A stretch of 64,000 bases of DNA, taken from NCBI GenBank assembly GCA_001873435.1, contig MNZB01000004.1, forward strand, positions 158,980 through 222,979, read 5' to 3'. The notes under the pieces were generated by a model that worked only from the letters and a program-made list of their open reading frames with translations, ran no database searches and was not told where the DNA came from. The translations under genes were made by a program, and so were the position numbers. Below are positions 5,788 to 56,402 of this stretch, one piece after another. How positions within the stretch are numbered: position 1 is the first letter of the stretch; every line of letters begins with the position of its first letter. The DNA comes from Candidatus Pacebacteria bacterium CG2_30_36_39 (GTDB taxonomy: Bacteria; Patescibacteriota; Microgenomatia; UBA1400; PJMF01).

Positions 5788-6414
5788 TTAAAATAATATT
5801 TCTTTTATTCCTTGTTTAAGACTTTCCGTTCCTCTTTGCTCTTTTATCCAAGTAAGAATCTTGGGAATTTTTTTAAAATCAGCAATGAATGACTCCATCA
5901 TTCTACTAGATCTTAAGGCTGCTGCGGGATGGTACATTGGTAAAACAAAAATATCCACTCCTTCCCACTGAACCTTATGCAATCTGCCATGAACTGCTGA
6001 TATTTTAACTTCTGGCAAAAATTTAGCCATACTAAAACGACCTAAGGTAACAATTATTTCAGGCTTTAAGATCTCTAGCTCCTGATTAAGATATGGTCTA
6101 TATGCCGCAATTTCAATAGGAGTAGGATCTCGATTTTCTGGAGGCCTAACTTTAACAATATTGCTAATAAAAACTTTAGCCGGGGGCAAACCAACTTCTT
6201 CCAAAACTTTTCTTAATAACTTGCCAGAACGACCAACGAATGGACGACGCTGCAAAGCCTCTTCTCTACCAGGAGCCTCACCAATACACATTATCTTCGC
6301 CCGAGAATCTCCTTCACCATGTACAATATCTGTTTTTTGAGTAGCAAGAGGTAATGTTTTGTAAGCAGCTTCTAGTTTTTGCTGTAATTCCTCAAGTAAA
6401 CCTGCATTATCCAT
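5788..6414 (-). CDS. uracil-DNA glycosylase, family 4
   Basis: GEAPGREE...RPFVGRSGKLL motif typical of family-4 UDG. Confidence 0.8.
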   Translation of the reverse strand: MDNAGLLEELQQKLEAAYKTLPLATQKTDIVHGEGDSRAKIMCIGEAPGREEALQRRPFVGRSGKLLRKVLEEVGLPPAKVFISNIVKVRPPENRDPTPIEIAAYRPYLNQELEILKPEIIVTLGRFSMAKFLPEVKISAVHGRLHKVQWEGVDIFVLPMYHPAAALRSSRMMESFIADFKKIPKILTWIKEQRGTESLKQGIKEILF

Positions 6415-6481
6415 AACTGTATGTTATCACAAAAGGGAGCCTTACGACTCCCTTTTTTATTTCTTTTTGTTTTACCAAAAC

Positions 6482-6793
6482 TTATTCAGTTAAATCTTTT
6501 GCAAGTTTAACATTGTTGTAAGTAGTCTTAGCTGCTGTTTCAATGAAATCATCAGCCAAGTCAGTTAAATCATCAGATGCTTTATCCAAAGTATCTGCCA
6601 TTTCACCATAAGAGTAAGCAGAAATTTTTTCTACTTCACCCATTTGAGCTAACAATTTATCTACTTTTGCTATATCTTCAGCAGACATTTGCTCTGGCAC
6701 ATCTTGCAAAGCAGTAACCACTGATTGATAAGTTTCTTCATCTAAGCCTTGGTTCTTTAGCTCAGCGAGAAGTTGTGTTTTAGTTGGTCCCAT
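6482..6793 (-). CDS. hypothetical small acidic protein
   Basis: 103-aa ORF, D/E rich, no recognised motif. Co-oriented downstream of the Lon-like ATPase gene. Confidence 0.4.
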   Translation of the reverse strand: MGPTKTQLLAELKNQGLDEETYQSVVTALQDVPEQMSAEDIAKVDKLLAQMGEVEKISAYSYGEMADTLDKASDDLTDLADDFIETAAKTTYNNVKLAKDLTE

Positions 6794-6821
6794 ATTTGTT
6801 CTCCTTTAAAAATATTTTCTA

Positions 6822-7478
6822 TTATTTAGCAAATCTACTCAACCAACCTCTTACTCCTGAAAAACTGGTAGCGTTTTGAGCAGCCTGTTGTTGCTTGGTT
6901 CTCTTTTCTTGAGCTTCCTGCTTTAATTTATCAGCAGCAGTCACAACTTGATCGCCATCTGTTTCTTGACTCTCATTGATAAGCTGATTAGCTGTCTCCA
7001 ATAGAGATTTAACACCCTCAGCGGCGGCTTTCAAAGCAGCGAGTTTTAGTTCGACGACTTTAGCTTCTGCTCTAGCTGGAAGACTATCAATAAAAGCTGA
7101 TAGTTGGTCCATCTTAGCAGCGGCTTTGTTAGTAATATCATAAGCACCTTGGATAACGTCTGCTTTAGCTTTTTCAATACCCATTTCAGCCTTGGTTCTT
7201 AGACTATCAGCGCCATCAACCAATTTACCTGGCCAAGAAGCAACTTCACCAGCTCCTTTTTTAACACCATCCCAAGCAGCTGCTCCAACTTCCTTTACTT
7301 TAGCCCAACTAGCACCCCAAGTCTCTCTACTTTGCTGACGCTTGGCATCACGAGCTTCTTGACGTGCTTTACCAGCATCTCTAGCATCAAATGACTTTTC
7401 AGCGGCTGCTCTTGCTGACTCAGAAGAGTAACTCTTTAGTACGTCTCCCTTTAAAAATGGTTTATTTGCTTCTCCCAT
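6822..7478 (-). CDS. hypothetical Ala/Lys/Glu-rich coiled-coil protein (LEA/phasin-like composition)
   Basis: 218 aa, amphipathic low-complexity repeats (AAEKSFDARDAGKARQEARDAKRQQ...). No signal peptide. Confidence 0.4.
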   Translation of the reverse strand: MGEANKPFLKGDVLKSYSSESARAAAEKSFDARDAGKARQEARDAKRQQSRETWGASWAKVKEVGAAAWDGVKKGAGEVASWPGKLVDGADSLRTKAEMGIEKAKADVIQGAYDITNKAAAKMDQLSAFIDSLPARAEAKVVELKLAALKAAAEGVKSLLETANQLINESQETDGDQVVTAADKLKQEAQEKRTKQQQAAQNATSFSGVRGWLSRFAK

Positions 7479-7508
7479 ATTTTCCTTTAACTTTTAGTTA
7501 CTTTATTA

Positions 7509-8003
7509 CTACTTATTCAATCCAGATCGGTATTTTTTTAATAAATTCAAAGCAAAACCAATACCACCAGTATTGCTCTTAGTTTCCATAGTAGCAGGTG
7601 CTTGAGTTGGTCGCAATGAGCTTAATGCATCAATATAGAAATCTACTTGGTCTGACTCAGCACTAGGCACTCTACCTTGTAATAAATCTTGAAGACTGTC
7701 AGCTCCATCACTTACTGAAGTTCCAGAAGATACTGTTTGTTTACTAGAAAAATCTTCCAATAAGGACAAAAGCTCATCAACTTGAGAAGCTCCTGAATCT
7801 CCATTATCTACAAAAGAATTAAGCATTTCTTCTAATTCTTTGATTGAATTATTACTAACAGTTTTTGCAACTGGAGCAGCAGCTCCACTCATCCTAGCTG
7901 AAACTTGAGCTTCAACTTCAGTTTTAATATATGCTTGTAACTCTGTAGCTAACTGAGCAAAAGCTTTTTGAAATATTTGATCATTCATATTTTTCTCTCT
8001 CAA
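7509..8003 (-). CDS. hypothetical protein
   Basis: 164-aa ORF, Ser/Asp-rich C-terminal half. No motif recognised. Confidence 0.4.
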   Translation of the reverse strand: MREKNMNDQIFQKAFAQLATELQAYIKTEVEAQVSARMSGAAAPVAKTVSNNSIKELEEMLNSFVDNGDSGASQVDELLSLLEDFSSKQTVSSGTSVSDGADSLQDLLQGRVPSAESDQVDFYIDALSSLRPTQAPATMETKSNTGGIGFALNLLKKYRSGLNK

Positions 8004-8067
8004 TAAATCACTGTTAAAAATTATATTCTTTTAGAGTTTTAAAAAAAATGTCTCAAAAAGTATCTTT

Positions 8068-9126
8068 CTAATACTTAGGCATGAATATTTTGGCATTTTC
8101 CTTAGTAATCACTACCTTATCAAAACCACGCTCAACAATAATACGCACTACTTTACGTACTGCTCCCTGCAATGTTCTTTGCAAAGTACGAATACCCATG
8201 TCATAACCCAAAGGACGAGTGATAATTGGCCAAACATCTTCATGTAAATCAAATTGCTCTGGTCTTAAACCTGCATCAGTCAATAAACCTGGCAATATAT
8301 ATTTCTTAGCAATTTGAATCTTCTCATTATCAGTGTATGAAGGCATAGAAATCTTTTCCATACGATCCATAACAGCAGTAGCAATCTTAGTAGTATTGTT
8401 AGCAGTAGCTAAGAAAATAGCATGACTTAAGTTAACTGGATAATCGATATAAGTATCTGTAAAAGCATTATTCTGAGCAGGATCAAGCAACTCAACTAAG
8501 ACACCCATAATATCCATATTAGCTTCTTCAGCTCCACGATCAATTTCATCTAACAAAATAACTGGATTACGAACACCAGCTTCACAAATTCCTTTAATAA
8601 CTCTTCCTGGCTCTGAACCAAGCAATAAGCGTGAATTACCACGAAGTTCTTTTGCTGATCCCATACCACCAAAAGGGATGCGCACCAACTGACGACCCAA
8701 TGCCTCAGATAACGAATAGGCAAAAGTAGTTTTACCTGTACCCACCAAACCAACAAGCAACAGAATAGGAGCTTTAAATTCTTCCCCGGGAGCTTGTTTG
8801 TTGCGTAAATTTAAAATAGAGATATATTCCAAAAAACGATCTTTAACTTCCTGCATACCATAGTGATGTTTATCAAAAACAGCCTTAGCTTTTTCAATAT
8901 CAGTCACGTCTTGAGATTCTTTTAGCCAAGGAATTTGGAGCACCCAGTTTACATAACGAGAAACTTTTTCATATTTTTCATCATAACTACCAAGTTCAAC
9001 ACTACGCTCAAGAGAAACAATCTCTTTTTCAACCTTACCCTTCATATCCTCTGGAAGGGAAGCTTGAATTGCCCTGTCACGAAGGTCTTTAATTTCTTGC
9101 TGAAGAATGTGTTTATAGTCTGTCAT
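8068..9126 (-). CDS. Lon-family AAA+ ATPase module without LAN and protease domains
   Basis: Aligns by eye to the Lon helical linker plus AAA+ core: YVNWVLQIPW, Walker A LVGLVGTGKTT, Walker B ILLDEIDR, sensor ATANNT, alpha subdomain GIRTLQR. The ORF ends right after the AAA+ alpha subdomain. No Ser-Lys protease domain. Confidence 0.8.
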   Translation of the reverse strand: MTDYKHILQQEIKDLRDRAIQASLPEDMKGKVEKEIVSLERSVELGSYDEKYEKVSRYVNWVLQIPWLKESQDVTDIEKAKAVFDKHHYGMQEVKDRFLEYISILNLRNKQAPGEEFKAPILLLVGLVGTGKTTFAYSLSEALGRQLVRIPFGGMGSAKELRGNSRLLLGSEPGRVIKGICEAGVRNPVILLDEIDRGAEEANMDIMGVLVELLDPAQNNAFTDTYIDYPVNLSHAIFLATANNTTKIATAVMDRMEKISMPSYTDNEKIQIAKKYILPGLLTDAGLRPEQFDLHEDVWPIITRPLGYDMGIRTLQRTLQGAVRKVVRIIVERGFDKVVITKENAKIFMPKY

Positions 9127-9141: not shown

Positions 9142-9717
9142 TTACTCCAACTCTGTTGGTGGAGTCTCAACTGAATCTATCTCTTCTGGAAGATTCGAGA
9201 CAGGCAGAACCTGCTGTGTTACTACTCCCAGACCAATTAAAAACATACCGGCCATTACCATTAAAAAAGTATTCGCTACTCCACCAGTTGCAGGTAGGGT
9301 TGCGGTACTACTCTCGGTAGCACCACCAACACCAGTGGTAGTGGTAGTTGTGGTAGAAGAAGTGCTTGTAGTAGTAGTGGAATTAATTAACAAAATATAG
9401 TCCAAAGATTCCAAATTAGAAGCCAACTTCAATGGATGGGCACTGGCTGTTAATGCAGTAATCGGCGTATAGCTCCAATCACCGGCAGAATCTGCTAGCA
9501 CTGCTACCGTTAAATCATCAATTGTAATATCGATCGTAGCATCTGGAGAAGCTTTACCAATTAAAGTAGGAGTTGTATCTGTCGTGCTAATACTAATTAA
9601 AGCACCAACAGAAGTACCGCCAGCACTAATTAGCTGCAAAGTTGCTGCCATAGCAACAGCTTTTACACTAAATAAAATTACCAAAAACAAGATAGCGATA
9701 CGCAAATATCGAAACAT
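9142..9717 (-). CDS. secreted Thr-rich surface protein with LPATG sortase-type sorting signal
   Basis: Probable start at MFRYLRIAILFLVILFSVKAVA (signal peptide). Poly-Thr/Ser linker. LPATGG followed by a hydrophobic helix near the C-terminus. The ORF-track start at 9771 lies upstream. Confidence 0.5.
   Translation of the reverse strand: MFRYLRIAILFLVILFSVKAVAMAATLQLISAGGTSVGALISISTTDTTPTLIGKASPDATIDITIDDLTVAVLADSAGDWSYTPITALTASAHPLKLASNLESLDYILLINSTTTTSTSSTTTTTTTGVGGATESSTATLPATGGVANTFLMVMAGMFLIGLGVVTQQVLPVSNLPEEIDSVETPPTELE
9335..9380. repeat. low-complexity trinucleotide repeat (ggt/agt units) encoding the poly-Thr/Ser linker
   Basis: Reiterated ggtagtggtagttgtggtag...gtagtagtagtgg units visible in the sequence. 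Confidence 0.5.
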
Positions 9718-9767
9718 AAAACTACTATACATTAAATCATGGAAACAAAACAACCCGTCAATATAGA

Positions 9768-10706
9768 TCAAAAATTAGTAGGGGTTTTACCTTCAATCAT
9801 TTCCCTACCAAGTAAACCAGTTTGAGCACCAAAATATCTAATTACCGAACCAGCATTTCTAACACCCCATTCCACAGATTTTTTTGGTTCCAAGTGCAAA
9901 TATTGAGCTGCTGAATAACCAGTAGCAAATGCATCACCAGCTCCAGTGTCATCAACTGACTTTGCTGTTGCTCCAAAAAACTTTAATTCTTTATTTCCAT
10001 GAATATATACTTCACCGCCTTCAGCACCCTTGGTAACCACAATTTGAGGAATTTCTTTAATTAAATCAGCTTGCTGATCTTTTACCAAATCCCATTCTTT
10101 ACTATTCAAAAACAAAACCATACAAGGAAGCTCACTGACCTTTAACTCACCACTAGCCAACAATGCCAATTCTTGCTTGCCCGGATTCCAAGATAAAACA
10201 GTCTCTGGATGAATCTTTACTAATTCAAAAATTCTACGCAAAGCCTCCAATCTTCCAGCAATACTAGAGAGATGGATCCAACGAGCTTGGGAAACCCAAT
10301 ATGGAGGAATATCATAGGAATCCAGCTGAGAAGCTGCTCCTCGATGAACTAGAACTGTTCTACTACCATTTTTATCAACCAAAATTACTGAGCCACCAGT
10401 TGTTTCTTGTTTTTCTTTAACTAAAAGCTGGGTATCAACTTGCTCTTTTTGCAAATTACGTACAATCATTTCTGCAAAATCATCCCTACCAATTTCACTA
10501 ATCAAAGCTGCTTTAAAACCTAATCTAGAAAAACCAACAGCAGAATTAGCTGCTCCACCACCAATCCTAGAAACAAAACTTTCCATTTCAACTTTATCAC
10601 CCTGAATAGTAAATCTATTTTCACCATTGAGATTTTCAACATCAAATTTTTCAGAATGAATAAATATATCAACCAAAGAAGAACCAATAGAAATGAAGTC
10701 GTACAT
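9768..10706 (-). CDS. PfkB-family carbohydrate/nucleoside kinase (ribokinase-like)
   Basis: GGGAANSAVG and DTGAGDAFATG motifs of the ribokinase/PfkB family. Confidence 0.8.
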   Translation of the reverse strand: MYDFISIGSSLVDIFIHSEKFDVENLNGENRFTIQGDKVEMESFVSRIGGGAANSAVGFSRLGFKAALISEIGRDDFAEMIVRNLQKEQVDTQLLVKEKQETTGGSVILVDKNGSRTVLVHRGAASQLDSYDIPPYWVSQARWIHLSSIAGRLEALRRIFELVKIHPETVLSWNPGKQELALLASGELKVSELPCMVLFLNSKEWDLVKDQQADLIKEIPQIVVTKGAEGGEVYIHGNKELKFFGATAKSVDDTGAGDAFATGYSAAQYLHLEPKKSVEWGVRNAGSVIRYFGAQTGLLGREMIEGKTPTNF

Positions 10707-38485: not shown

Positions 38486-40408
38486 CTATTCATTAACCAC
38501 TTCACCCTCTTCAGCTTCTTTCTTATCATCAGCCTTATCTTCTTTCTTTTCATCTTTGGCTTGACCAGCAGCTCCTTGAGCTTGAGCAGCCTGTGCTTTT
38601 TGCATAGCCTCACCAAGTTTTTGAGCAGAAGTCAAAGTCTCTTCGGAAGCCTTATCTAAATCCTCTTTGGAAACATCATCCTTAGCAGCTAATTCTTTGA
38701 GTTTTTTAATATTTTCCTCAATAGCTTCTTTATCCTTAGGATCAACTTTATCACCATAGTCTTTGACTTGTTTTTCCATCTCAAAAGCAATGCTATTGGC
38801 TTTGTTTTTGGCTTCAATCAAATCTTTTTTGGCCTTATCCTCTTCAGCATGCTGCTCTGCATCGTTCTTCATTTTCTCAACTTCTTCATCAGAAAGATTA
38901 GTACTATTTTGAATAGTAATCTTTTGCTCCTTACCAGAAGTTTTATCTTTAGCAGAAACATTTAGAATACCATTTGAATCAATATCAAAAGTCACTTCTA
39001 CTTGAGGAATACCTCTTGGAGCTGGTGGAATACCATCGAGTACAAAACGACCAAGAGTCTTATTATCTACAGCCATCTGACGTTCACCTTGCAAAACATT
39101 AATCTCTACCTGAGTCTGATTATCAGCCGCAGTAGAAAACACCTGTGACTTGCTAGTTGGAATAGTGGTATTGCGCTCAATCAAAGGAGTGCGAATTCCA
39201 CCCAGAGTCTCCAGACCTAAAGTTAAAGGAGTAACATCAAGTAAAACTACGTCAGTTACATCTCCACCAATAACACCTGCCTGGATAGCAGCGCCAACAG
39301 CTACCACTTCATCTGGATTAACACCCTTATGTGGTTCTTTGCCAAAGAATTTCTCAACTTCTTTTTGAATCTTAGGCATACGAGTTTGACCACCAACTAA
39401 TACAACCTCACTAATATCTTTGGTTTCAACCTTAGCATCTTTCATGGCCTTACGAACTGGTTCAAAAGATTTTTTGATCAAATCATCAACTAATTCTTCA
39501 AGCTTAGCTCTAGTTAAAGTCATAGTTAAATGCAAGGGTTGACCGCCATCACCTTGGGTAATGAAAGGCTGATTAATCTCTGTTTGTTGAGCAGAAGACA
39601 ATTCAATCTTGGCTTTTTCAGCACTATCCTTGACACGTTGCATAGCCTGAGGATCTTTGGAAAGATCTTTGCCTGAATCTTTTTTAAATTCAGCAAGAAT
39701 ATACTCAATAACAGCATTGTCAAAATCATCACCACCAAGAAAAGTATCACCATTAGTAGATTTAACTTCAAAAACACCATCTCCAATCTCTAAAATTGAG
39801 ATATCGAAAGTACCACCACCTAAGTCATAAACAGCAATGGTTTTACTACCTTTTTTATCAAGACCATAGGCCAAGGCAGCGGCAGTTGGCTCATTAACAA
39901 TGCGCTCTACTTTGAGACCAGCAATTTCACCAGCTTGCTTAGTAGCCTGACGTTGAGAGTCATCAAAATATGCTGGCACAGTAATAACAGCTCTCGTAAC
40001 TGTCTCACCCAAGTAACTTTCAGCATCAGCTTTGGCTTTAGCTAAAACCTTAGCAGAAATTTCTTGTGGGGTATAAGCCTTGTTATTAACTTTAACTACC
40101 ACCATCCCATCTTTGCCATCAGTAATATCATAAGCAATATGCTTAAGAGCATTCTGTACAGCCTTATCATTGAGTTTGCGACCCATAAAACGTTTAACAG
40201 AGTGAATAGTAGTTTTTGGATTCATCACCATCTGACGCTTAGCTGCATCACCCACCACTGAATCTTCACCTTTAAAATTTACAATTGAAGGAAAGGTATT
40301 GCGTCCTTCTGCCGTGGCAATAATCTTTGGTGAGCCACCCTCCATTACTGCTACTGCTGAATTTGTGGTACCCAAATCGATACCGATAATTTTGCCTGAG
40401 TTTGCCAT
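38486..40408 (-). CDS. dnaK: chaperone DnaK (Hsp70)
   Basis: [18 protein letters not shown], Hsp70 signature regions throughout. Confidence 0.95.
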
Positions 40409-40937: not shown

Positions 40938-41663
40938 TTATCCGGTAATTTCTTCAATTAAACCCTTAAAATATTTCATCATTGGAATGATGTAAGGATA
41001 GTCAAAACGATGTGAGCCAATTACACCTATTTTACAAAGTTGACCTCCGGCTGTAACTTCCATATAAATTAGACTTACAGGTTCAAGATTTTTGTTTCCC
41101 AGCTCTTTGCCATAAACTAGATGAACTGGGTTTTCACTTTGACCAAGATCAAAGACATCTTCCATCATCCCAGCTTCTTCAATTAAATTGAGCACATTGC
41201 GAGTAACACGAATATCAAAAAATTCTGGCATATTTAATAAATTAGCATAACCAGAATGATAGATGCGATGATCTATGGGAGTCATAGCTACTCCGACAGC
41301 ATGAGCTTTTTCAGCCAAGATACGAGCCGCTTCATAAAGCAAGGCGTCTGTTTGTTGACGATACTTCCAAATTTTTTCTTTTGCCCCTACTTCATCTGCC
41401 ACTGACAATTCTTTTTCTTTCATCAGCTCATTAACGTATAAACGTAAAGCCAAAGGTGTAGGAATACGCCCAGCAGAAATATGAGATTTTTGTAAATAAC
41501 CTTGCTTGGTAAGATAAACCATTTCATTGCGAATAGTGGCCGGAGAAACACCAATGTTGAATTTTTTATCAATAGTATCAGAGCCAACTGGCTTAGCTGT
41601 TTCGATAAACTCCTCGATGATAGCGCGTAATATTTGGATCTGACGAGCAACGAGATCAATCAT
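40938..41663 (-). CDS. hrcA: heat-inducible transcription repressor HrcA
   Basis: N-terminal winged helix (PVGSDTI...ATIRNEMVYLTKQGYL), HrcA C-terminal domain. Start taken at ATG 41663 (MIDLVARQ), because the longer ORF begins at TTG and overlaps CIRCE. Confidence 0.8.
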   Translation of the reverse strand: MIDLVARQIQILRAIIEEFIETAKPVGSDTIDKKFNIGVSPATIRNEMVYLTKQGYLQKSHISAGRIPTPLALRLYVNELMKEKELSVADEVGAKEKIWKYRQQTDALLYEAARILAEKAHAVGVAMTPIDHRIYHSGYANLLNMPEFFDIRVTRNVLNLIEEAGMMEDVFDLGQSENPVHLVYGKELGNKNLEPVSLIYMEVTAGGQLCKIGVIGSHRFDYPYIIPMMKYFKGLIEEITG

Positions 41664-41667
41664 AATA

Positions 41668-41694
41668 TTAGCAATGATATACAAAGAGTGCTAA
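41668..41694. promoter_or_regulatory. CIRCE-like inverted repeat (HrcA operator)
   Basis: Minus-strand reading TTAGCACTC-N9-CATTGCTAA (consensus TTAGCACTC-N9-GAGTGCTAA), immediately upstream of hrcA. Confidence 0.6.
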
Positions 41695-44292: not shown

Positions 44293-46260
44293 CTAGCTAC
44301 GCTTAAGCTCTTTGCGAGCCTTAGGCATACCCATAACTCTTTCAAACTCATCACTATCCATAGTCTCTATTTCCAAGAGTTTTTTGGTTACAGCATCAAG
44401 TTCTTTACGATGTTTCTTTAATAATAAAGTAGCTTTTTTCTGAGCTTCATCAATGTATTTACGAATTTCATCATCAACTTTTTCTTGAAGTTGACTAGAA
44501 ATCTTTTGTGGCTCGCCCCAGGCTCTGGCATATGTTTGGTCATATTGAGGGGCGAAATTCATTGGACCCAAATCACTCATACCATACTCCACCACCATAG
44601 CTCTAGCAGCTCTTGTGGCGCGCTCAATATCATTACTGGCACCAGCTGTTTGCTCGCCATAAACCAACTCTTCAGCTGTACGACCGCCCATCATTACCAC
44701 CATATCATCCAACATCTCTGATTTGAGCAATTGCACTCTATCTTTTTCTGGAGGAGTAAATGTATATCCCAAGGCATGACCTCTGGAAACAATAGAAATT
44801 CTATGAACTGGATCGGCATAGGGAAGAATATGAGCCAAAACAGCATGACCAGCCTCATGGCAAGCAGTCATCTCACGCTCATAATCATCATGAAGACGTT
44901 TTTTGCTTGGACCATATTTTACTTTCAAAGAAGCCTCTTCAATATCTTCCATATTAATGAAGTCTCTGCTTTCGCGAGCAATAGCAATAGCAGCCTCATT
45001 CATCATATTTTCTAGATCTGCTCCAGAAAATCCAACTGTTCTCTTAGCTATCTTTTCCCAAGTTAAAGCTGGATCCATAGGTTTGCCTTTGGCATGAATC
45101 TTTAAAATAAATTTACGTTCTTCTAAATCAGGTAAGGAAACAGTCACACGACGATCAAAACGACCAGGACGAACCAAAGCTGGATCAAGCATGTCTCCCC
45201 TGTTTGTAGCAGCCATAACAATTACGTTTTCATTACGAGCAAAACCATCCATTTCAACTAAGATTTGATTTAAAGTCTGCTCTCTTTCGTCATGCCCACC
45301 CATACTGCCTTGGCCACGAATGCGACCAATTGCATCAATTTCATCGATAAAAATAATAGCTGGAGCTAACTTTTTAGCTGTCTCAAACAAGTCACGAACT
45401 CTAGAAGCACCAACACCAACTAGCATTTCCATAAATTCAGAACCTGCAATAGATAAGAACTGTACATTTGCTTCTCCAGCTACAGCTCTGGCCAATAAAG
45501 TTTTTCCTGTACCAGATGGACCAACCAATAAAACACCTTTTGGAGTACGAGCTCCCACTTTAATATATTTCTTAGGATTCTTTAAAAAGTCGACAATTTC
45601 TTGTAGTTCTTGCTTAGCTTCATCCATACCGCCCACATCACCAAAAGTAATGCTTTGCTTGCCTTTAACAAAAACTTTGGCTTTACTACGACCAATACCC
45701 ATAATTCCGTCTTGAGCTCCGCGAGCCTGTCGGAACATCATTAAGAAAAATAAAATCATTAAACCAAGCGGCAAGAAATTAATTATCAATTCCCAAAAAA
45801 GTTGACCAAAAGCCACATTCTCGATGTTGAGATCTACTGCAGTAATATCAATACCAGCAGAATCTAAAATTGAGAGAGCTTCCTGACCTTCTTCCTTAAG
45901 AGCATATTTTTTGCTCTCATCTTTATAAATACCTCTTAGTTCAGTGCTAGTAACCTGAATTTTTTCAATTTTTTCTTCACGAATATCACGCACCATTTGG
46001 CTTAAAGAAACATATTCAGTAGAACCACCAAAAAGATTGCGTATTGCAGGAAAAAAGATTAATAAAAGAATTAAAAAAATAAAACCTTTATTAAAGATAT
46101 TATTCAAATTCATATTAAATTGGAAAATCTTCACATTTTTTGGCAATTTAGGCATTTGTTGTTGAACACCAGGCTTTTTTTGAGTTTTTTGAGGATCAGC
46201 AGCCTTATTTTGAGGTGAAATATTTTTTTTATCTTGTTTTGTTCCAGGCTTGTCAGTCAT
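44293..46260 (-). CDS. ftsH: ATP-dependent zinc metalloprotease FtsH
   Basis: [11 protein letters not shown] region, HEAGHA zinc motif. N-terminal TM helices. Confidence 0.95.
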
Positions 46261-47234: not shown

Positions 47235-48248
47235 CTAATTTTTTACTCCAATAATTTTATATACTTCAGTTAAAGTAGCATTTGCCACTTGGCCTGCCTT
47301 GTCGGCTCCCATAGCCAAAATCTTGGTTACTAGTTCCAGATCGTTCGCCAAAGCCAATCTGCGCTTACGAGCCGCTTCAAACATTCTTTGATGAGCTAAA
47401 AATAGTTTCTCTTTAACTTCAACATCGCCTACTTGTCCTGCCTGGTATCTTGATTTTAAATCAGTAACTTCATCCTGATTATCATTAATCAAATCATGAT
47501 AGATAAAGATTGGATTGCCATCTACTTTCCCTGGATCAGTAGCTTTTTTGCGGTTTGGATCAGTGAAACAAGACATAATCTGTTTACGAATTACTGCTTC
47601 ATCTTCAAAAATGCCAATAGTATTACCCAATGATTTACTCATCTTGCGTTGACCATCAGTGCCAACAATCTTACCAACTTGCTTGGAAATTAGTGGTTCT
47701 GGTAAAGGAAATTCTTCTTGTTGATAAGTACGATTGAAGTTTTCAGCAATATCACGAGTTAACTCAATATGCTGACGTTGATCTTCACCAACTGGAATAC
47801 CAAATGGTTTGTAAAGCAAAATGTCTGCTGCCATTAAAATGGGATAGTTAAATAAGCCCATATTAATTGATTCAACTCCAATATCTTTTTGAAGTTTATC
47901 TTTAAAAGCATGCATTCTTTGCATCTGGCCAAAAGAGATATAGTTTGCCAAAACAATGGCTAACTGAGTATGGGCTGGAACTTGAGACTGGCGAAAGAAA
48001 ACACATTTTTCTGGATCAAGGCCTAAAGATAAATAATCAAGAACCACGCCTAAAATATTTTTTTCTAGAGTTTTTTGATCATGTACTGTGGTAAGAGCAT
48101 GTAAATCAGCAACAAAATAAAATGTTTCTTTACTGCTGTCATTTTGTAGCTCAATTTGTGGTTTTACAGCACCAAAATAATTGCCAATATGGAGAGAGTT
48201 GCCGCTTGGAGTAATGCCAGATAAAATTCTATTTGTTTTTGTTGTCAT
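47235..48248 (-). CDS. trpS: tryptophan--tRNA ligase
   Basis: GITPSGNSLHIGN (HIGH) and KMSKS motifs. About 337 aa. Confidence 0.9.
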   Translation of the reverse strand: MTTKTNRILSGITPSGNSLHIGNYFGAVKPQIELQNDSSKETFYFVADLHALTTVHDQKTLEKNILGVVLDYLSLGLDPEKCVFFRQSQVPAHTQLAIVLANYISFGQMQRMHAFKDKLQKDIGVESINMGLFNYPILMAADILLYKPFGIPVGEDQRQHIELTRDIAENFNRTYQQEEFPLPEPLISKQVGKIVGTDGQRKMSKSLGNTIGIFEDEAVIRKQIMSCFTDPNRKKATDPGKVDGNPIFIYHDLINDNQDEVTDLKSRYQAGQVGDVEVKEKLFLAHQRMFEAARKRRLALANDLELVTKILAMGADKAGQVANATLTEVYKIIGVKN

Positions 48249-48308
48249 AAAGTTTCCTAATTATAAATGAATACGTAAGTTTTGCAGAGGCATATCTGGA
48301 ATTAAATC

Positions 48309-48340
48309 CAAAAAACCCCCAATTTTAGGGGGTTTTGTTT
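48309..48340 (-). terminator. rho-independent terminator downstream of the recombinase gene
   Basis: aaccccc-aatttta-gggggtt hairpin with flanking A/T runs. Confidence 0.6.
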
Positions 48341-48487
48341 CAAATTAATTTCTTTTAAATTTTATAACACAACAAATACACCCCTCTTATTTTGAGTGGC
48401 GCCACCAAGAAAATTTAATTTGTTGGTAAGTATTTGTCATATCCATGTTTTATTCTAATTTATCTAAACTTATTTACCATTACTGGT

Positions 48488-49357
48488 TTAAAGTTCTTCA
48501 ATTTGAACATTAGGAGCCATATCTGGAGCATCAATTAATTCAAGATATTTCTCAGTAGTAGTAATACGTTTGTGACCAACTAGTTGAGAGACATAAACCA
48601 ATGGAGTGCCAGCCTTAAGCTGTTCAACAATAAATGTATGACGTAAATCGTTTACTTTGGCTTCTTTGATTCCAGCTAAACGGAAATAACGATCAATAGC
48701 AGTACGGATATTTCTAACCAAGAAAGGACGACAAGTCTTGGTTAAAAAGACAGTCTTCTCTTTTGAACGAGGACGAACTTTCAAATAGTCCATCAAAGCT
48801 TTTTTAGCAGCTTTATTCAAAGGAACTTTGCGTTCTTCTCTAGAATTTTGAGCTAAAATGTTTACAACACCTCTATCCAAATCAACGTCATCAGATGCCA
48901 AAGCAGCTAGTTCACTAATTCTCATACCAGTTTGAAGTAAAACTTCAACAATGGCAAAAATACGAGCATCTCCACGACATGCGTCGCGCAAAGCTCTGTA
49001 TTCTAAACGACTCAATACTCTGGGAGGAGATTGTTCAATTTTAGGATGAGAAATAGTTTCTGCTGGATTTGCTGCAACAATGTTTTCTCCAATTAAATAA
49101 CGGAAGAAAGCTTTAATAGAGTTGATTTTGCGAGAAACTGATTTACTTGTATAACGTTTTTGTTTTAAATCACTCTTAAAGTTATCAATATCATCACTAG
49201 TAACCTCGGCCACTAGGGTTTTACCCTTTTCGCCGACGAATTGAACTAATTGTTCTATGTCTTTACTGTATGCGATGACTGTTGCATTGGCTTTACCCTT
49301 CTCTCGAAGGTTTTGCTCAAATTTAACATGTGCATCAACTAAAACTGTTTGTTGCAT
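48488..49357 (-). CDS. tyrosine site-specific recombinase (XerC/XerD-like integrase family)
   Basis: C-terminal catalytic region with R...HTFIVEQL...GHKRITTTEKY (R-H-R-Y). N-terminal SAM-like core-binding domain. Confidence 0.8.
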   Translation of the reverse strand: MQQTVLVDAHVKFEQNLREKGKANATVIAYSKDIEQLVQFVGEKGKTLVAEVTSDDIDNFKSDLKQKRYTSKSVSRKINSIKAFFRYLIGENIVAANPAETISHPKIEQSPPRVLSRLEYRALRDACRGDARIFAIVEVLLQTGMRISELAALASDDVDLDRGVVNILAQNSREERKVPLNKAAKKALMDYLKVRPRSKEKTVFLTKTCRPFLVRNIRTAIDRYFRLAGIKEAKVNDLRHTFIVEQLKAGTPLVYVSQLVGHKRITTTEKYLELIDAPDMAPNVQIEEL

Positions 49358-49489
49358 ATATTTTCTCTTTCCCTCTTATACAATGGCACTAAAATATAGC
49401 GTCAGTGTATGATGTAGGGCAGAATACTAATTAACTTATATTAATCTAACGTCTTATAATATCATAACCAGGGATTTTTAGCAAGCAGT

Positions 49490-49843
49490 ATGAAACAATT
49501 GCTTACCAAGCCCATCACCATCCTCTTTCTTAGTGTTATATCACTGCTGTTTTTTATTTCTCTTCGAAAAACAGCACAAAAAAGTGAGCTATCACAGAAA
49601 AATGTTGAGATACTAGAACAAAAAATTGAGGATAATAAAATTGAGATTGAAGAAGAAAAAAAACAAATATTTTATGCGTCATCAGAATTTGCTATAGACA
49701 AACTTTGGCGGGATGAATTATTAAACTATAAACCAGGAGAATATGTTTTACAAATTCCACTTGAGGAAAAAGTAAAAAAAGATGAAAGTTTTACTGAAAA
49801 TAAATCAGCTTGGGAAAATTGGCTTAGCTTATTCCAAAAATAA
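49490..49843 (+). CDS. small TM + coiled-coil protein, possibly septum formation initiator (FtsB/DivIC-like)
   Basis: N-terminal TM helix then heptad-rich segment. 117 aa. Confidence 0.4.
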   Translation: MKQLLTKPITILFLSVISLLFFISLRKTAQKSELSQKNVEILEQKIEDNKIEIEEEKKQIFYASSEFAIDKLWRDELLNYKPGEYVLQIPLEEKVKKDESFTENKSAWENWLSLFQK

Positions 49844-49886
49844 AAAATTAAATCGAGTTATAATTATATCTATATATATCTAACTA

Positions 49887-50846
49887 ATGAAAAAAAATAA
49901 AAAAGAACAAAGATTATCTACCAAACCTACTGGAGAAACTGCTTTTTTGGCATACTATCGAACTCTTTTCGCCAATGAAGCTGAATTTCAATCCTGGGAA
50001 AAAGCTTTAAGATCAGACAAAAACCCAGTTTTACGCTTTAATCCTAAATATGAAGAAATATTAAAACAACTTTGGAGTGAAGCTGAATTACCGTGGAAAA
50101 CTCTTTCTTGGCATCCATACGCCCTAGAATGGCCTAAAAATGTTCCTCCAAAGACAACATTGCCTGGTTTCAAAGAGCGCTATTTTTATGCCATGAATGC
50201 CTCTTCCTTGTTGCCAGTACTAGCTCTTGATCCTGGTCCTGGAGACTTAGTGTTAGATGCTTGCGCTGCTCCAGGAGGAAAAGCCTTGTTTATTGATGAT
50301 TTGCTTGATAAAAAAGGATTACTTATTGCTAATGACCTTTCAAACTTCCGTCGAGGTCGAATGCGTCAGATCTTCAAAGCCTATGATAAAGAGCACATTG
50401 AGATTTGGGGACAAAAGGCAGAAACCATTTTTTATAACCAACCAGAGTATTTTGATAAAATTCTCATTGATGCTCCATGTAGTAGTGAAAAACATATTAT
50501 TAGAGAACCAAAAGAATTAAAAAAATGGAGTTACACTAGAATTCAAACTCTATCTGCTAGACAAAAAAATCTCCTGAAATCTCTTTGGTTGGCTTTAAAA
50601 CCTGGTGGCACCATGGTTTATTCCACTTGTGCTGTTACTCCAGAGGAAAATGAGGGAGTTGTTGAAGAATTTATTAAAGAGCAACAAGATGCCATACTCC
50701 AACCATGGACTTTGGATACTCCTGGAGGGGCTGGTTTGTCATTTCAAGAAAATTTGTCTTTTTCTCTGGAAAAAGTACGTAGAGTCCAACCACATAAAGA
50801 TGGTTTCGACCCCATGTTTGTAGCAAAATTTGTAAAAAAAGTTTAG
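49887..50846 (+). CDS. RsmB/NOP2/Sun-family RNA cytosine-C5 methyltransferase (catalytic domain only)
   Basis: DACAAPGGK SAM motif, DAPCSSE and TCA catalytic Cys motifs. Confidence 0.8.
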   Translation: MKKNKKEQRLSTKPTGETAFLAYYRTLFANEAEFQSWEKALRSDKNPVLRFNPKYEEILKQLWSEAELPWKTLSWHPYALEWPKNVPPKTTLPGFKERYFYAMNASSLLPVLALDPGPGDLVLDACAAPGGKALFIDDLLDKKGLLIANDLSNFRRGRMRQIFKAYDKEHIEIWGQKAETIFYNQPEYFDKILIDAPCSSEKHIIREPKELKKWSYTRIQTLSARQKNLLKSLWLALKPGGTMVYSTCAVTPEENEGVVEEFIKEQQDAILQPWTLDTPGGAGLSFQENLSFSLEKVRRVQPHKDGFDPMFVAKFVKKV

Positions 50847-51115
50847 GAATCAGCCTGATTGGTTGTTGAAGTCAAATTTTTCTGCTCGTAATCCTCTATT
50901 TCTGTTAAGAATTTTTCTAATTTGGGTAAATTTTCTGCATAAAACTGCCCTGCTTGATCAACTTCCATAGCTAAGAACTGACCTAAAGTATCAATATCTT
51001 GTTCAGTCATTTGTGGAATTTTATAAACCAATTCTGGTTTTTTGCTCTCATCCAGTTGGATGCTTTGACGAATCAATACTTCTAGAGCTGCTTTTTTTTC
51101 TTCTAAACTAGGCAT
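50843..51115 (-). CDS. hypothetical protein
   Basis: 90-aa acidic ORF. Overlaps the upstream gene by 8 nt. Confidence 0.35.
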   Translation of the reverse strand: MPSLEEKKAALEVLIRQSIQLDESKKPELVYKIPQMTEQDIDTLGQFLAMEVDQAGQFYAENLPKLEKFLTEIEDYEQKNLTSTTNQADS

Positions 51116-51668
51116 TACTTACTCCTATTGCTGGCGTACGAAACATACTGGCAGCTTTTTGTACTTCTGTTGACTTGACTGTTGCCTGATGAGCTCTCCA
51201 GATTTCTGTAGCTCTTTTAACCCCGGCTTTCATTCTTGGAAAATCTTTTACGAACTGCATTGTAGTTTCAATGGCGTGAGTTGGTAGTGCTCCACCAGTA
51301 AATAACTCCAATACTTCGCTGCCCCATGCCCAAGCTTTACTAACATCAGGTGTTAAGTCAAAAGAAGTAAGCTTTGCTAGATCTGCTCCGATTGATACTA
51401 CTTCACCAATTCCTGGTACTAAATCGACTACTGAAATACCAATGTTTAGGACTGTCCTAGCAAATGCTATTAGAGCAATTTTTACTTTTTCGTCTTGCAA
51501 CATTTTTCCAAGTAGAAAATTACTTTCTTGCTTGGACTGAAACATTTCTCCGATGCGGCCAGCGACATCTTTTAAGCCAGACTTAACGTACTCTGGTATT
51601 TTGCCGAAGCGCTCTGATCGCCATTCTGAGTTGTTGTTTGGTTTCTTTTCTTGTTTTTGCTCTACCAT
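51108..51668 (-). CDS. hypothetical protein
   Basis: 186-aa ORF with a central hydrophobic segment (LNIGISVVDLVPGIGEVVSIGADLA). GC slightly above background. Confidence 0.4.
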   Translation of the reverse strand: MVEQKQEKKPNNNSEWRSERFGKIPEYVKSGLKDVAGRIGEMFQSKQESNFLLGKMLQDEKVKIALIAFARTVLNIGISVVDLVPGIGEVVSIGADLAKLTSFDLTPDVSKAWAWGSEVLELFTGGALPTHAIETTMQFVKDFPRMKAGVKRATEIWRAHQATVKSTEVQKAASMFRTPAIGVSNA

Positions 51669-51842
51669 ACTTCATTAGTATATAGTGAAAAGCGTGCTAA
51701 AAAAACTTCTAGAAAAAATATTCATAGGTTCTAAAAAACAATCAAATTCTTCCGAGTTAATTAAAAAAATCAAAACTTTTAGTAAAAGGCTCTATGTTCT
51801 AGAAGATGAGTTTTTTGCTAAAAATGAAAATAAACAAGGATA

Positions 51843-53492
51843 ATGCCAGAGACAGCATCAACTGATCAGCTGACTGAGTGGAGAGAAAAACTAGAGCTTA
51901 AAAAGATAGATGTTTTGCGGCTCAAGCAAGAAGCTGCTTCTTTAGATCAGGAAAAAAGTCTTAGGGCAAAAAGAGTTTTAGATCAATATTGGAATGTTAA
52001 AGAAGGTAAATCTTCAGAGGATGCAGAATCAAAAGATTTAGTTGCTCTTTTTGAATCACTACCGCCTGAGCTTCAAGAGCAGGTTCTAGAAAATCTTATC
52101 AGTATCCAATTAACCTGGGGATGTAATGGTCTATGTCCATTCTGTGCCTATGAACCAGATAAGGGTGTTAAAGCAAAATTTTCTTTTGAGTCTCTTAAGG
52201 CGTTTTTAGCTAAGTATGGAGAAAGATTGAAAAAAGCCAAAGAAAGTAGTTCTGGCTCTATTCCTCACTATTGGGATAGTGATCCATTTGATTATCTGGA
52301 TCAAGGCCATGATTATTTAGATTTTTATCTTGAATGGAGAAAATATTTTCCCAATGAACCTATTTTTATTAGCACAGCTGTTCCAAAGGGTTCGACCGAT
52401 GCTTTCAAAAGATTTATTATTTATGTCTGGAATCACTATTATAAAGAAAATCAAATGGTTCAAGTTCGTGTTTCTGTTTCCAAAGCTAATATCCAAAGAA
52501 TTGAAGCTGTTTTTGAAGAAATTAAACAAGAGATGGGATGGCCAATTAATAAGGATATCGAAGAAATACTTAGTCCTTTCTTGAGTTTTTCTCCAAGAAT
52601 TGAAGATGATGAAATTGATGATCTAGGACCAAGAATTAATAAACATGATGATTTTGCTAGTTCAAATTCACCCTCATGTTCTGATGGAGTTGTTTTGACT
52701 CCGTTACAAATTAAGGCTATTACGATGACTGCTGCCAATGTCTATGAGCCTTCTGGTGAAAAAACAATGATAATTAATCAAGATACTCCAGTTAATATGA
52801 TTCCTAGTTACACTAGTAAGGCGTATTTTAATGGTTTTAGTTCTAATACAGATTTGGTTTTAAGAACTGAGATGCGTCAGGCATTTTTGCCAATGGTGAT
52901 AAATTCTGATGGTAGAGAAATTATTTTGCCTGATAAATATGAAAATACTATTTATAGACTTGGTAGATGGAGTTTTTCTTTGGATTTAGTGTTAATTGAT
53001 ATTGCTAACTTAATTAATCCCAATTCTCCAGCATATGAAAATACTACTAGAGAAAAAGAAGAGTATCAGGTATTGGCTTTACAAGCTGCCAATATTCATT
53101 TGGATGAAATAAAGGATGATCTTAAAAAAGCAGAAGAGTTATTTAATAGCGGCTTACTTACTCCGGAGCAAATGAGTAAACTTGAGTTTTATTATATGCT
53201 TACCTATTTGCGTGTTATGCAAATTTCGCTAGTAACTAATACTGCTAGCGGTTTTTTTGTGAGTGCAGAAGAAATATCTCTTCAAGCAAATATTCTTAAA
53301 GAAATAAATAAGAAGAATATTGATCAAATCGAGGAAATAATAGAGCTTTTAAGGGTTAGTGTTGATTTAAAGGCGACTGCGGAGAATAAGAAAATTTCAA
53401 TTGAGTTGTTAGTTAAAACTCTTGGTTTTACTGAAGATAAAAAGCCAAGGTGGCTGGGTATATTGCAAAGAAGGGCTGGGGTAATTAGTTAG
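51843..53492 (+). CDS. radical SAM-like protein of unknown function (CX3CX2C motif, long N-terminal coiled coil)
   Basis: ISIQLTWGCNGLCPFCAYE: hydrophobic strand plus CX3CX2C. A GGEP-like segment (WDSDPFDYL) sits about 45 aa downstream. No SPASM/twitch Cys cluster. 549 aa. Confidence 0.55.
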   Translation: MPETASTDQLTEWREKLELKKIDVLRLKQEAASLDQEKSLRAKRVLDQYWNVKEGKSSEDAESKDLVALFESLPPELQEQVLENLISIQLTWGCNGLCPFCAYEPDKGVKAKFSFESLKAFLAKYGERLKKAKESSSGSIPHYWDSDPFDYLDQGHDYLDFYLEWRKYFPNEPIFISTAVPKGSTDAFKRFIIYVWNHYYKENQMVQVRVSVSKANIQRIEAVFEEIKQEMGWPINKDIEEILSPFLSFSPRIEDDEIDDLGPRINKHDDFASSNSPSCSDGVVLTPLQIKAITMTAANVYEPSGEKTMIINQDTPVNMIPSYTSKAYFNGFSSNTDLVLRTEMRQAFLPMVINSDGREIILPDKYENTIYRLGRWSFSLDLVLIDIANLINPNSPAYENTTREKEEYQVLALQAANIHLDEIKDDLKKAEELFNSGLLTPEQMSKLEFYYMLTYLRVMQISLVTNTASGFFVSAEEISLQANILKEINKKNIDQIEEIIELLRVSVDLKATAENKKISIELLVKTLGFTEDKKPRWLGILQRRAGVIS

Positions 53493-53853
53493 AAAATTGT
53501 TCGACTGCTGCAATAACGTCTTCTAGTTTGGCAGTTCCCTTTACAAAATATCCTTTTGCGCCAAGTGCTGCAGTTTTTTCACGATCTTCGTAGGAGTCAA
53601 CTGCGGTAACCACTAGGACTGGAACGTCTTTTGTTTCTATGTTTTCTCTTAGTTCTTTTAAGACTTGAAAGCCATCTTTTTCTGGCATTAATAAATCTAA
53701 TATTATTACTGCTGGTTGGTTGTTTTTTGCTGAATCTAAAACTTGATTGCCATTTTTAAAGTATTCTACTTCGAAACCGGCTAGTTCAAATTTTTTCTTT
53801 GATAGCTTGCTTAAAAATAAATCGTCTTCTACTAAAAATATGACTTTTTTCAT
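53485..53853 (-). CDS. single-domain response regulator (CheY-like receiver)
   Basis: VEDD acidic pair, ILDLLMPEKDG phospho-acceptor Asp, T and K motifs. 122 aa, no output domain. Confidence 0.8.
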   Translation of the reverse strand: MKKVIFLVEDDLFLSKLSKKKFELAGFEVEYFKNGNQVLDSAKNNQPAVIILDLLMPEKDGFQVLKELRENIETKDVPVLVVTAVDSYEDREKTAALGAKGYFVKGTAKLEDVIAAVEQFSN

Positions 53854-53854
53854 T

Positions 53855-54223
53855 TTATGAAATTGCCTTTTTTAAATATTCAATGATTTCTGATAATTGT
53901 GTTTCTGATTTTACAAAATATTTTTTTACTCCCAAGGCAGCTACTCTCTGTTTGTCTTCCTCAGAGTTCAGGGCGCTAACTATTATTATCAAAACTTTTC
54001 CAGCCGAAATTTCTTCTTTTAATTCTTCCAAAACCTGAAAACCATTTTTTTTGGGCATTACTAAATCAAGTACTATTACTGCAGGGTTTTCTTTTTTTAC
54101 CTGACTTGCTACTTCTAAGCCATCATCAAAAAATTGAACGTTTAGTCCTGCTAATTCAAATTTTTTCCTTGATAGTTTACCCAAAAATAGGTCGTCTTCT
54201 ACTAAAAATATTTTTTTATTCAT
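53855..54223 (-). CDS. single-domain response regulator (CheY-like receiver), paralog of the downstream gene
   Basis: VEDD, VLDLVMPKKNG, same length and about half identical to 53485..53853. Confidence 0.8.
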   Translation of the reverse strand: MNKKIFLVEDDLFLGKLSRKKFELAGLNVQFFDDGLEVASQVKKENPAVIVLDLVMPKKNGFQVLEELKEEISAGKVLIIIVSALNSEEDKQRVAALGVKKYFVKSETQLSEIIEYLKKAIS

Positions 54224-54686
54224 ATAGTTTTATCTCCGTAAATAGTGATTTGTTCTCAACTAAATATGGGCTTGTGAGGTCTAGGGCGCGCAACCAGCTT
54301 AGCTTAATTTTGTATACAGCATAGTCGTGTCCAGAAATTTGCAATACTGGTGGCCAAAAATCCTCGTGGGTTGCAGATGATTCAACTATTTTGTCTAAGG
54401 CTGTATTTAGTTCTGCTGGATCATTAATTTTTGAAATTGAGCCATTGGCCTGAACTAGCATTTGTTTATGTTCCCAAACTGAAATGCTTATTTGATTGTT
54501 TTCTTCAATTGCCTTGGCTTTATAGCTTGAAGATAGAGTTGCAAAGTACATTGTGAAATCTTCATCGATAGCAAATAATAAGATTGTTGATAGAGGTTTG
54601 TTGTTTTGATGACAAAAGGCTGCCGACATGATGGAAGTCTTTTTCATGAATTCGTACACCTCTTGTACTGAGTATGTTTTAACCAT
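54216..54686 (-). CDS. pyridoxamine 5'-phosphate oxidase-like FMN-binding split-barrel protein
   Basis: 156 aa. Pattern (MSAAF...TILLFAIDEDF...ISV) resembles the PNPOx-like/general stress protein 26 fold. Weak. Confidence 0.5.
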   Translation of the reverse strand: MVKTYSVQEVYEFMKKTSIMSAAFCHQNNKPLSTILLFAIDEDFTMYFATLSSSYKAKAIEENNQISISVWEHKQMLVQANGSISKINDPAELNTALDKIVESSATHEDFWPPVLQISGHDYAVYKIKLSWLRALDLTSPYLVENKSLFTEIKLYE

Positions 54687-54737
54687 GAATCAATAGTAGC
54701 GGAAAAGTAATTAAATAGCAAAAAAATTAATATATAT

Positions 54738-56321: not shown

Positions 56322-56374
56322 TAAAAGTTATGTTTGTTAATATAACGACTATTAACTTTTATAACAATTATCAT

Positions 56375-56402
56375 AAAAAAAGACCTATTTCTAGGTCTTT
56401 TT
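56375..56402. terminator. bidirectional rho-independent terminator
   Basis: aaaaaa-agaccta-tttc-taggtct-ttttt. Confidence 0.6.

Follow-up and report, generated by a model that had tools for sequence, protein, structure and literature searches.

In LonA, a tyrosine in pore-loop 1 and a tryptophan in pore-loop 2 touch the substrate and are needed for degradation (PMC8503904). The Lon subfamilies described in the literature that we searched (LonA, LonB, LonC, and LonBA) all keep the protease domain; LonC is reported to keep protease and chaperone function without ATPase activity (PMC3391209, PMC13069640). Here, we analyzed a 64,000-nucleotide (nt) stretch of the genome of Candidatus Pacebacteria bacterium CG2_30_36_39 (contig MNZB01000004.1), hereafter the window, which encodes on its minus strand a 352-amino-acid (aa) Lon-type AAA+ ATPase (8068..9126), followed on the same strand by three small genes, B, C, and D. 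An earlier reading of this DNA (the original prediction) had presented the four genes as an orphan Lon-derived unfoldase with dedicated partner proteins. Our results place the ATPase in a family, found in bacteria from the candidate phyla radiation (CPR), that keeps only the motor of Lon. The best overall explanation, to which we assign a probability of roughly 0.55, is that the protein is a stand-alone, non-proteolytic, Lon-type remodeling ATPase and that the three downstream genes are separate from it.

A Lon-type AAA+ module and its family

The 352-aa protein was classified by use of the list of open reading frames (ORFs), Pfam, NCBIfam, matches in the PDB, and an AlphaFold2 (AF2) model. 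It aligned with positions 253-571 of the 795 positions of the TIGR00763 profile ("endopeptidase La"), scoring 299.5 bits (E = 6e-89) against a full-length cutoff of 608 bits, and its score with NF008053 (218.7 bits) was likewise below the cutoff of that profile (891 bits). The structure of Bacillus subtilis Lon (3m6a) matched with an E value of 1.3e-66, and the Lon alpha-domain structures 1x37 and 4git matched as well. Pfam detected AAA (PF00004; E = 5.5e-16) and, at 23.1 bits and so slightly under its 27-bit cutoff, Lon_lid (PF22667). This domain is recorded for nearly all homologs, and most distant members that were scanned score 34-44 bits for it. The AF2 model had a mean predicted local distance difference test (pLDDT) score of 75, and all of the top 50 PDB matches found with it by Foldseek were LonA. 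The protein is made up of a helical bundle (residues ~1-110, equivalent to LonA ~250-350), an alpha/beta core, and a Lon-type lid, and it holds both the P-loop core motifs and the Lon-specific lid of a Lon-type AAA+ module. We assign it this identity, and membership in the family described below, with high confidence.

Neither terminal domain of Lon was detected. Pfam returned no match in the 352-aa protein to Lon_C (PF05362) or to LON_substr_bdg (PF02190), even at E <= 1. Segments cut from the N and C termini of 13 full-length Lons served as tblastn queries against all six frames of ~1.4 Mb of DNA, comprising the window and 80 related loci, which came from a scan of one genome per GTDB species and were read for +-10 kb each. 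No remnant of a Lon protease domain or N domain was found in any frame, and the best match (E = 0.09) was noise. Because these searches found no remnant, the gene is not a frameshifted full-length lon; the 352-aa protein is a natural, intact gene product. The original prediction was right in its description of the molecule: all four ORFs are present on the minus strand, the 352-aa product matches Lon from the helical linker through the AAA+ module without the N-terminal and protease domains, and it ends where the Ser-Lys protease domain would begin. A pseudogenized protease domain downstream, which would have spoken against the prediction, was not found. An assignment as a LonA protease fails, given the absence of both domains, the sub-threshold profile scores, and a pore-loop tyrosine that is not conserved.

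Motif conservation was judged over the 80 loci and 34 aligned homologs. Walker A (GLVGTGKTT, residues 126-134; 8725..8751, minus) is invariant in the family, and Walker B (LLDEIDR, residues 191-197; 8536..8556, minus; located by alignment), sensor-1 (TANN), the Arg finger (DRME), and sensor-2 (GIRTLQR) are invariant or nearly so. Alignment with full-length Lons located pore-loop 1 at residues 163-175 (GNSRLLLGSEPGR; 8602..8640, minus). Its central part reads NSRLLLG; Leu168 stands where Lon has its invariant tyrosine, and the basic HRR of Lon is gone; full-length Lons have HRRTY[IVL]G, with tyrosine in 56 of 56. In the window's family, this position is occupied by Leu (34), Ile (16), His (7), Val (6), Asn (6), Tyr (4), Phe (3), Arg (2), or Gln (2), and in the Dojkabacteria-type branch by Tyr (24), Phe (24), Glu (20), Ser (19), and others. 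The net charge of the pore loop falls from +3 in full Lons to +0.5 or -1 in the short forms. The pore-loop-2 region (GAEEANMDIM), which follows Walker B, has neither an aromatic residue nor the RGDP of Lon. The pore-loop tyrosine position is thus relaxed in the protease-less forms and not uniformly lost; the stricter statement that all of these forms have lost the tyrosine proved too strong, as a larger sample contained members that keep Tyr or Phe. Since the substrate-gripping tyrosine is a leucine here and is not conserved in the family, the name "unfoldase" appears doubtful for the 352-aa ATPase.

The C-terminal tail (IFMPKY; 8071..8088, minus) follows a consensus, IF[LM]PxY/F, that an alignment showed in 80 of 80 loci. 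The counterpart in full Lons is the [YF]LGxP linker, after which the protease domain begins; the short protein stops at this point. The tail is variable in the distant branch, and the consensus is specific to the window's sub-family.

The ATPase has close relatives in more than 120 clusters at 73-100% identity, all but one of them 351-366 aa long and nearly all 351-358 aa, and the ORFs at the related loci measure 351-368 aa in 79 of 80 cases, the 80th being truncated at a contig end. An exhaustive search of representatives added further short forms at 37-53% identity, with full-length Lons at only 36-40%. With a profile built from the distant short forms, 881 proteins passed E < 1e-30. Each of the top 120 was 351-470 aa long and contained AAA and Lon_lid only, and those with names were from Dojkabacteria or Patescibacteria. 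Both Lon terminal domains were likewise missing from ten longer or more distant members. The gene is not the orphan that had been proposed, since it belongs to a large, conserved CPR family of short Lon-type ATPases, from which hundreds of clusters at 90% identity were sampled, almost all of 351-470 aa. In the same exhaustive search, the top representatives (P0121-P0128 and similar) were proteins of 1000-1675 aa in which Lon-type AAA+ modules are repeated in tandem, two or three per protein, and only part of these proteins have a DGPSAG-type Lon catalytic motif; P0122 is an "AAA family ATPase" of Candidatus Dependentiae. Such multi-module Lon-type ATPases seem unusual.

The median identity to the window's protein across the 80 loci was 72% for the ATPase and 41-66% for the flanking housekeeping genes (RNase J, 56%; FtsK, 61%). 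Among the 62 loci with at least six comparable genes, the ATPase was the most conserved gene of its neighborhood in 60. The family occurs widely in two CPR classes, and its conservation exceeds that of RNase J and FtsK from the same genomes. These comparisons point to an ATPase under strong purifying constraint, vertically inherited and intact in the CPR/Patescibacteria (Microgenomates and Dojkabacteria). One of the loci, CP011212, has been placed in the Microgenomates order UBA1400 (PMC7143001); the same paper lists some peptidases of one Microgenomates genome, among which Lon is not mentioned. We found no description of a protease-less Lon family, or of the Lon content of CPR genomes, in the open-access literature that we searched. 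The sequences of this conserved protease-less Lon motor are already in databases by the thousands under generic or wrong names. The close clusters are named as "AAA family ATPase" of Pacebacteria, Woesebacteria, or Patescibacteria, and in IMG-derived annotation thousands of such genes are labeled "ATP-dependent Lon protease," a wrong label that may mislead reconstructions of CPR metabolism and proteostasis.

The downstream cassette and the gene neighborhood

The three genes downstream of the ATPase are gene B (7509..7988, minus), gene C (C218; 6822..7478, minus; 218 aa), and gene D (D103; 6482..6793, minus; 103 aa), all taken from the ORF list. Gene B had been read as a 164-aa protein (7509-8003, from a TTG at 8003). 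That ORF is present, but the start is most likely the ATG at 7988 (MNDQIF...; 159 aa), as in the ortholog in locus L001. The composition first described for the three products, and their lack of annotation, held. The product of gene B is Ser-rich and acidic (13% Ser; isoelectric point [pI], 4.6), that of gene C is Ala/Lys/Glu-rich (19% Ala, 11% Lys; pI 9.2) and all-helical by prediction, and that of gene D is acidic (pI 4.1). None of the three matched anything in Pfam, NCBIfam, PHROGs, or PADLOC. The AF2 model of gene C (pLDDT 49) was not usable for a fold search. The identity of gene B, 44% in L001 and 27% in L004, indicates fast evolution.

Occurrence was counted at the 71 informative loci, each with at least 2 kb beyond the ATPase. 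Besides the window, the trio stands beside the ATPase in 2 of the 71 (L001 and L004). Gene C is a lineage-restricted orphan: a search of 5.8 billion proteins gave just 6 related clusters. At L093 (JGI 3300008018 Ga0100382_1028130, 1-2341), the trio occurs together, at 26%, 48%, and 56% identity for B, C, and D, respectively, and the ATPase is not upstream. Instead, a divergently transcribed ORF fragment of 97 aa lies 200 nt upstream, with no Pfam or NCBIfam match. Its N terminus may resemble those of some transposases; if so, the B-C-D cassette might be mobile.

What follows the ATPase differs between lineages, with at least five gene sets that are unrelated to each other. The slot contains B-C-D in the window, L001, and L004; an unrelated pair of 678-757 aa and 67-69 aa in L002 and L003; in 7 loci, a multi-pass membrane protein of 265-278 aa; in 5 loci, a membrane protein of 559-611 aa; and other genes elsewhere. 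The L002/L003 pair, at +129 to +2681 nt after the ATPase stop, consists of an Ala/Lys/Glu-rich helical protein and an acidic protein, similar in composition to C218 and D103. Searches of the slot genes, this pair included, with hmmsearch profiles of B, C, and D gave noise, and remote homology was rejected. Either the pair is a highly diverged version of the cassette or the slot repeatedly gains compositionally similar proteins.

An AT-rich spacer (7989..8067, minus) separates the ATPase stop from gene B. It carries promoter-like hexamers (TTAACA-17-AAAAAT at 8017-7989), which are consensus matches only, the total for the region being no higher than in shuffled sequence. Inspection of the sequence between gene D and the next gene, which encodes a member of the uracil-DNA glycosylase superfamily (UDG; 5788..6414, minus; identified by Pfam and synteny), revealed a terminator-like hairpin of nine pairs between A and T runs (6431..6456). 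These signals suggest that the cassette is probably transcribed independently of the ATPase. The occurrence of the trio in 2 of 71 loci, the variable slot, the rarity of C218 homologs, and the cassette without an ATPase at L093 together argue that the trio is independent, and it is very probably not a partner of the ATPase family. B-C-D is a separate, fast-evolving cassette inserted between the ATPase and UDG genes in one small lineage. The dedicated partner proteins of the original prediction are not supported, and the four-gene arrangement is not conserved in relatives, where the downstream genes are unlinked from it; the four-gene system does not exist as a conserved unit.

The wider neighborhood of the ATPase is more regular. 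A conserved block, verified with Pfam, has the order FeS-assembly protein, RpiB, Rpe, LOG, PfkB, (LPXTG protein), AAA, UDG, RNase J, and FtsK. The usual direct neighbor downstream of the ATPase is UDG or RNase J. Of the 71 loci, 32 have a UDG start no more than 150 nt from the ATPase stop, and 4 others have RNase J at this distance; in 62, RNase J is found within 6.5 kb of the ATPase. In Dojkabacteria, the order is NusA, translation initiation factor 2 (IF2), S15, polynucleotide phosphorylase (PNPase), AAA, (NUDIX), UDG, and RNase J, with a PNPase-ATPase gap of 8-54 nt in L090 and L091, and L083 has PNPase, AAA, and RNase J. IF2 and PNPase lie 15-20 kb upstream of the ATPase in the window. The order PNPase-AAA-(UDG)-RNase J is thus held across CPR classes at ~40-50% ATPase identity. 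Lon_C, ClpP, and HslV were not found next to the ATPase in the window, in the 80 loci, or in 11 further Pfam-annotated loci; M16 and M23 peptidases lie nearby in L087. The neighbors in the window are housekeeping genes, with no defense-island context. PHROGs and PADLOC, searched for a phage or defense origin of the four genes, gave only the expected Lon/AAA similarity for the ATPase; its PADLOC matches were weak and generic to AAA (best, 32.9 bits to PDC-M37B), and neither PADLOC nor NCBIfam gave a BrxL, ComM, or RadA-type match. Rfam and tRNA scans returned nothing within the four-gene coordinates.

Some features of the surroundings were recorded alongside. Directly upstream of the ATPase, across a gap of 15 nt, lies a gene (9142-9771, minus) for a Thr-rich protein, which matches a bacterial Ig-like domain and an LPXTG cell-wall anchor weakly and below threshold. 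This gene can be detected in only 31 of 80 loci and is another variable element of the neighborhood. In a sub-clade without the usual synteny, L071 (9050-10895) and L073 (3752-5645) share a conserved ORF pair near the ATPase. The larger member (362/355 aa, 54% identity) might, by eye, be the N terminus of a reverse transcriptase; the smaller one has 254/278 aa and 26% identity. A full-length FtsH (FtsH_ext, AAA, AAA_lid_3, and Peptidase_M41) is encoded at 44293-46260 (minus), and the source organism has at least this one canonical AAA+ protease. Inverted repeats resembling the operator CIRCE (controlling inverted repeat of chaperone expression), of the type TTAGCA-N15-TGCTAA, occur at 41668-41694 and 59969-59995 (2 and 3 mismatches to the consensus; chance expectation, 0.01). 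One immediately precedes the operon hrcA(40938-41684)-grpE-dnaK(38486-40408) on the minus strand and the other groES-groEL (groEL, 57896-59515), and the organism appears, from these sites, to have a classical HrcA/CIRCE heat-shock regulon.

At the scale of the whole window (1-64000), the minus strand carries nearly all of the long ORFs, and the plus strand keeps a negative GC skew throughout (from -0.1 to -0.35 per 2-kb bin), apart from the one bin named below, with a cumulative skew that falls nearly linearly. The same strand disparity of G and C has been reported for some Microgenomates of the order UBA1400 (PMC7143001). The interval 48000-56400 has a G+C content of 0.295-0.33, versus about 0.37, and the sole bin of positive skew (+0.116 at 52-54 kb). 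It contains two large ORFs without a Pfam match (51843-53492, plus, 549 aa; 54738-56321, minus, 527 aa). Two tRNA-Met genes in divergent orientation (56410-56479, minus; 56580-56654, plus) come after it. This interval may be a foreign or variable island.

Proposed function and alternatives

We propose that the ATPase is an old, vertically inherited Lon-derived module that holds a stable position (PNPase ... AAA - UDG - RNase J - FtsK). It would assemble into a ring and hydrolyze ATP, which is likely given that no residue for nucleotide binding or hydrolysis has been lost, the Arg finger that acts in trans among them. It would remodel proteins without degrading them, in the manner of a chaperone, rather than unfold substrates processively for a protease; we infer a non-proteolytic role from the lack of a peptidase domain together with pore loops that lack the invariant tyrosine and the basic residues. 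The trio is a separate three-gene cassette, inserted between ATPase and UDG and probably with its own transcription. The functional part of this proposal, a non-proteolytic chaperone or remodeler, is tentative, and we give it somewhat less than an even chance. A link to proteostasis counts in its favor: DnaK adjoins the ATPase in L066, L071, and L078, a sub-clade that lacks the PNPase, UDG, and RNase J neighbors and whose ATPase is 64-69% identical, and GroES-GroEL is divergent from the ATPase in L084 and L085 and within 5 kb of it in L088. If the protein is a working ATPase, the family would offer a natural system for the role of a Lon motor without proteolysis and for protein quality control in small genomes.

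Several observations weigh against this proposal. The function is read from sequence and gene context. The chaperone-gene adjacency concerns only ~6 sampled loci in three sub-clades and could come from chance or inherited gene order, and the most consistent neighbors of the ATPase are enzymes of nucleic acids (PNPase, UDG, RNase J, and FtsK), not chaperones. No CIRCE operator was found, at up to 3 mismatches, near the ATPase (9126) or between the GroES and AAA genes of L085, and heat-shock control of the ATPase through such a site was rejected. The pore-loop position is Tyr or Phe in about 40% of the Dojkabacteria-type members and a bulky aliphatic residue in most of the window's family, so that threading of a polypeptide may be possible. 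The protease domain of LonA contributes to hexamer formation; ring assembly without that domain is for this reason an assumption. The separation of the short forms from canonical HRRTY LonA, as one clade, comes from a crude neighbor-joining tree of AAA+ modules that carries no support values.

The absence of a peptidase in the polypeptide could also mean that it is encoded elsewhere. Two-component AAA+ proteases such as ClpXP and HslUV are well established, and the ATPase might feed a stand-alone Lon_C or a ClpP/HslV-like peptidase, possibly docking by its C-terminal tail. The intact ATPase machinery, a tail that is invariant in 80 of 80 loci and ends where the protease linker begins, and the aromatic pore-loop residue of part of the wider clade would all fit such a split Lon. 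However, neither Lon_C nor the N domain turned up when all frames of the 64-kb window, and of +-10 kb in each of the 80 genomes, were searched, the Pfam-annotated neighbors at the 11 further loci include no ClpP, HslV, or Lon_C, the pore-loop tyrosine needed for degradation by LonA is not conserved, and the tail, being restricted to the window's sub-family, may be the mere end of the lid; we regard a split Lon as unlikely. Alternatively, the ATPase might work with PNPase, RNase J, UDG, and FtsK, for example, by remodeling ribonucleoproteins or by loading or unloading these enzymes. In favor of this, different CPR classes share the order PNPase-AAA-(UDG)-RNase J despite only ~40-50% ATPase identity, with the short PNPase-AAA gaps of L090 and L091 and the frequent proximity of UDG (32 of 71) and RNase J (62 of 71), and the Lon-like AAA+ protein BrxL is reported to bind DNA (PMC10164562). 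The gene string nusA-infB-rpsO-pnp is widely conserved, and the adjacency may for that reason be inherited order and not functional coupling. The DnaK-associated sub-clade keeps its ATPase at 64-69% identity without these neighbors, the less basic pore loops (+3 to +0.5 or -1) speak against the threading of nucleic acid, and the searches for BrxL, ComM, and RadA-type proteins were negative. A role tied to nucleic acids is, in our estimate, quite unlikely.

A chaperone or disaggregase built from the ATPase and three dedicated partners has in its favor that the four genes share one strand with short gaps and stay together in the window, L001, and L004. The trio is nevertheless found at only 2 of the 71 informative loci, with unrelated genes in the slot elsewhere, C218 has 6 clusters versus thousands for the ATPase, the L093 trio has no ATPase upstream, and the cassette has its own promoter-like spacer and terminator-like hairpin. 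Such a system is very improbable, and an interaction of ATPase and trio may exist as a lineage-specific matter. That the gene is a degenerating remnant, either a truncated lon or an assembly artifact without function, might be read from its scores under the full-length Lon cutoffs and from the label "ATP-dependent Lon protease" in IMG, but its length is constant (351-368 aa) in 80 species, its catalytic motifs are invariant, it is the most conserved gene of its neighborhood, and it has no flanking domain remnants; the chance of this is negligible. Returning to the non-proteolytic remodeling ATPase, a bolder version would have these genome-reduced CPR lineages replace the Lon protease altogether by a protease-free, core, near-essential "chaperone-only Lon," in which remodeling is separated from proteolysis, acting perhaps on basic RNA-binding or ribosomal proteins; in an alternative form, the protein might dock by the invariant IFLPxY tail onto a non-Lon peptidase and so make a new two-component protease. 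The basic substrates are conceivable because of the fixed nusA-infB-rpsO-pnp-rnj position and the de-basified pore. We consider this version improbable.

Comparison with known Lon-related systems

LonA (TIGR00763, MEROPS S16; for example, B. subtilis Lon, 3m6a, and Meiothermus taiwanensis LonA) shares the AAA+ module with the window's protein at 36-40% identity over ~330 residues, and Walker A and B, sensor-1, the Arg finger, and sensor-2 are common to both. The window's protein differs in lacking the N domain and the Ser-Lys protease domain and in falling in a separate clade; in its family, the pore-loop-1 tyrosine and HRR are not conserved, and the pore-loop-2 aromatic residue and RGDP are absent. 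An Escherichia coli Lon AAA+ construct (6n2i) is of nearly the same extent, with residues 15-345 of the query aligned to 14-335 of 344 (E = 3.5e-61) and a match in Foldseek as well. That construct is a laboratory truncation of a full protease, whereas the CPR protein is the product of a natural gene conserved at that length.

BrxL, ComM, and RadA are reported to be Lon-related modules recruited to non-proteolytic work on DNA (PMC10164562, PMC11612176) and in this resemble the family proposed here; the window's ATPase differs from them in giving no significant match and in having pore loops less basic than those of Lon. For LONP1, one report states that the anti-aggregation activity needs ATP hydrolysis and not protease activity (PMC8368198), which, by analogy, could serve as a functional precedent for a protease-independent, chaperone-like ATPase role. 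LONP1 itself, however, is a protease of full length, and its pore loops are canonical, whereas the CPR family is known from its sequences. LonC of M. taiwanensis, LonB, and LonBA are, like the CPR family, Lon variants in which one activity is lost or altered. All of these keep the protease domain; the CPR family has undergone the opposite loss, keeping the ATPase without the protease domain.

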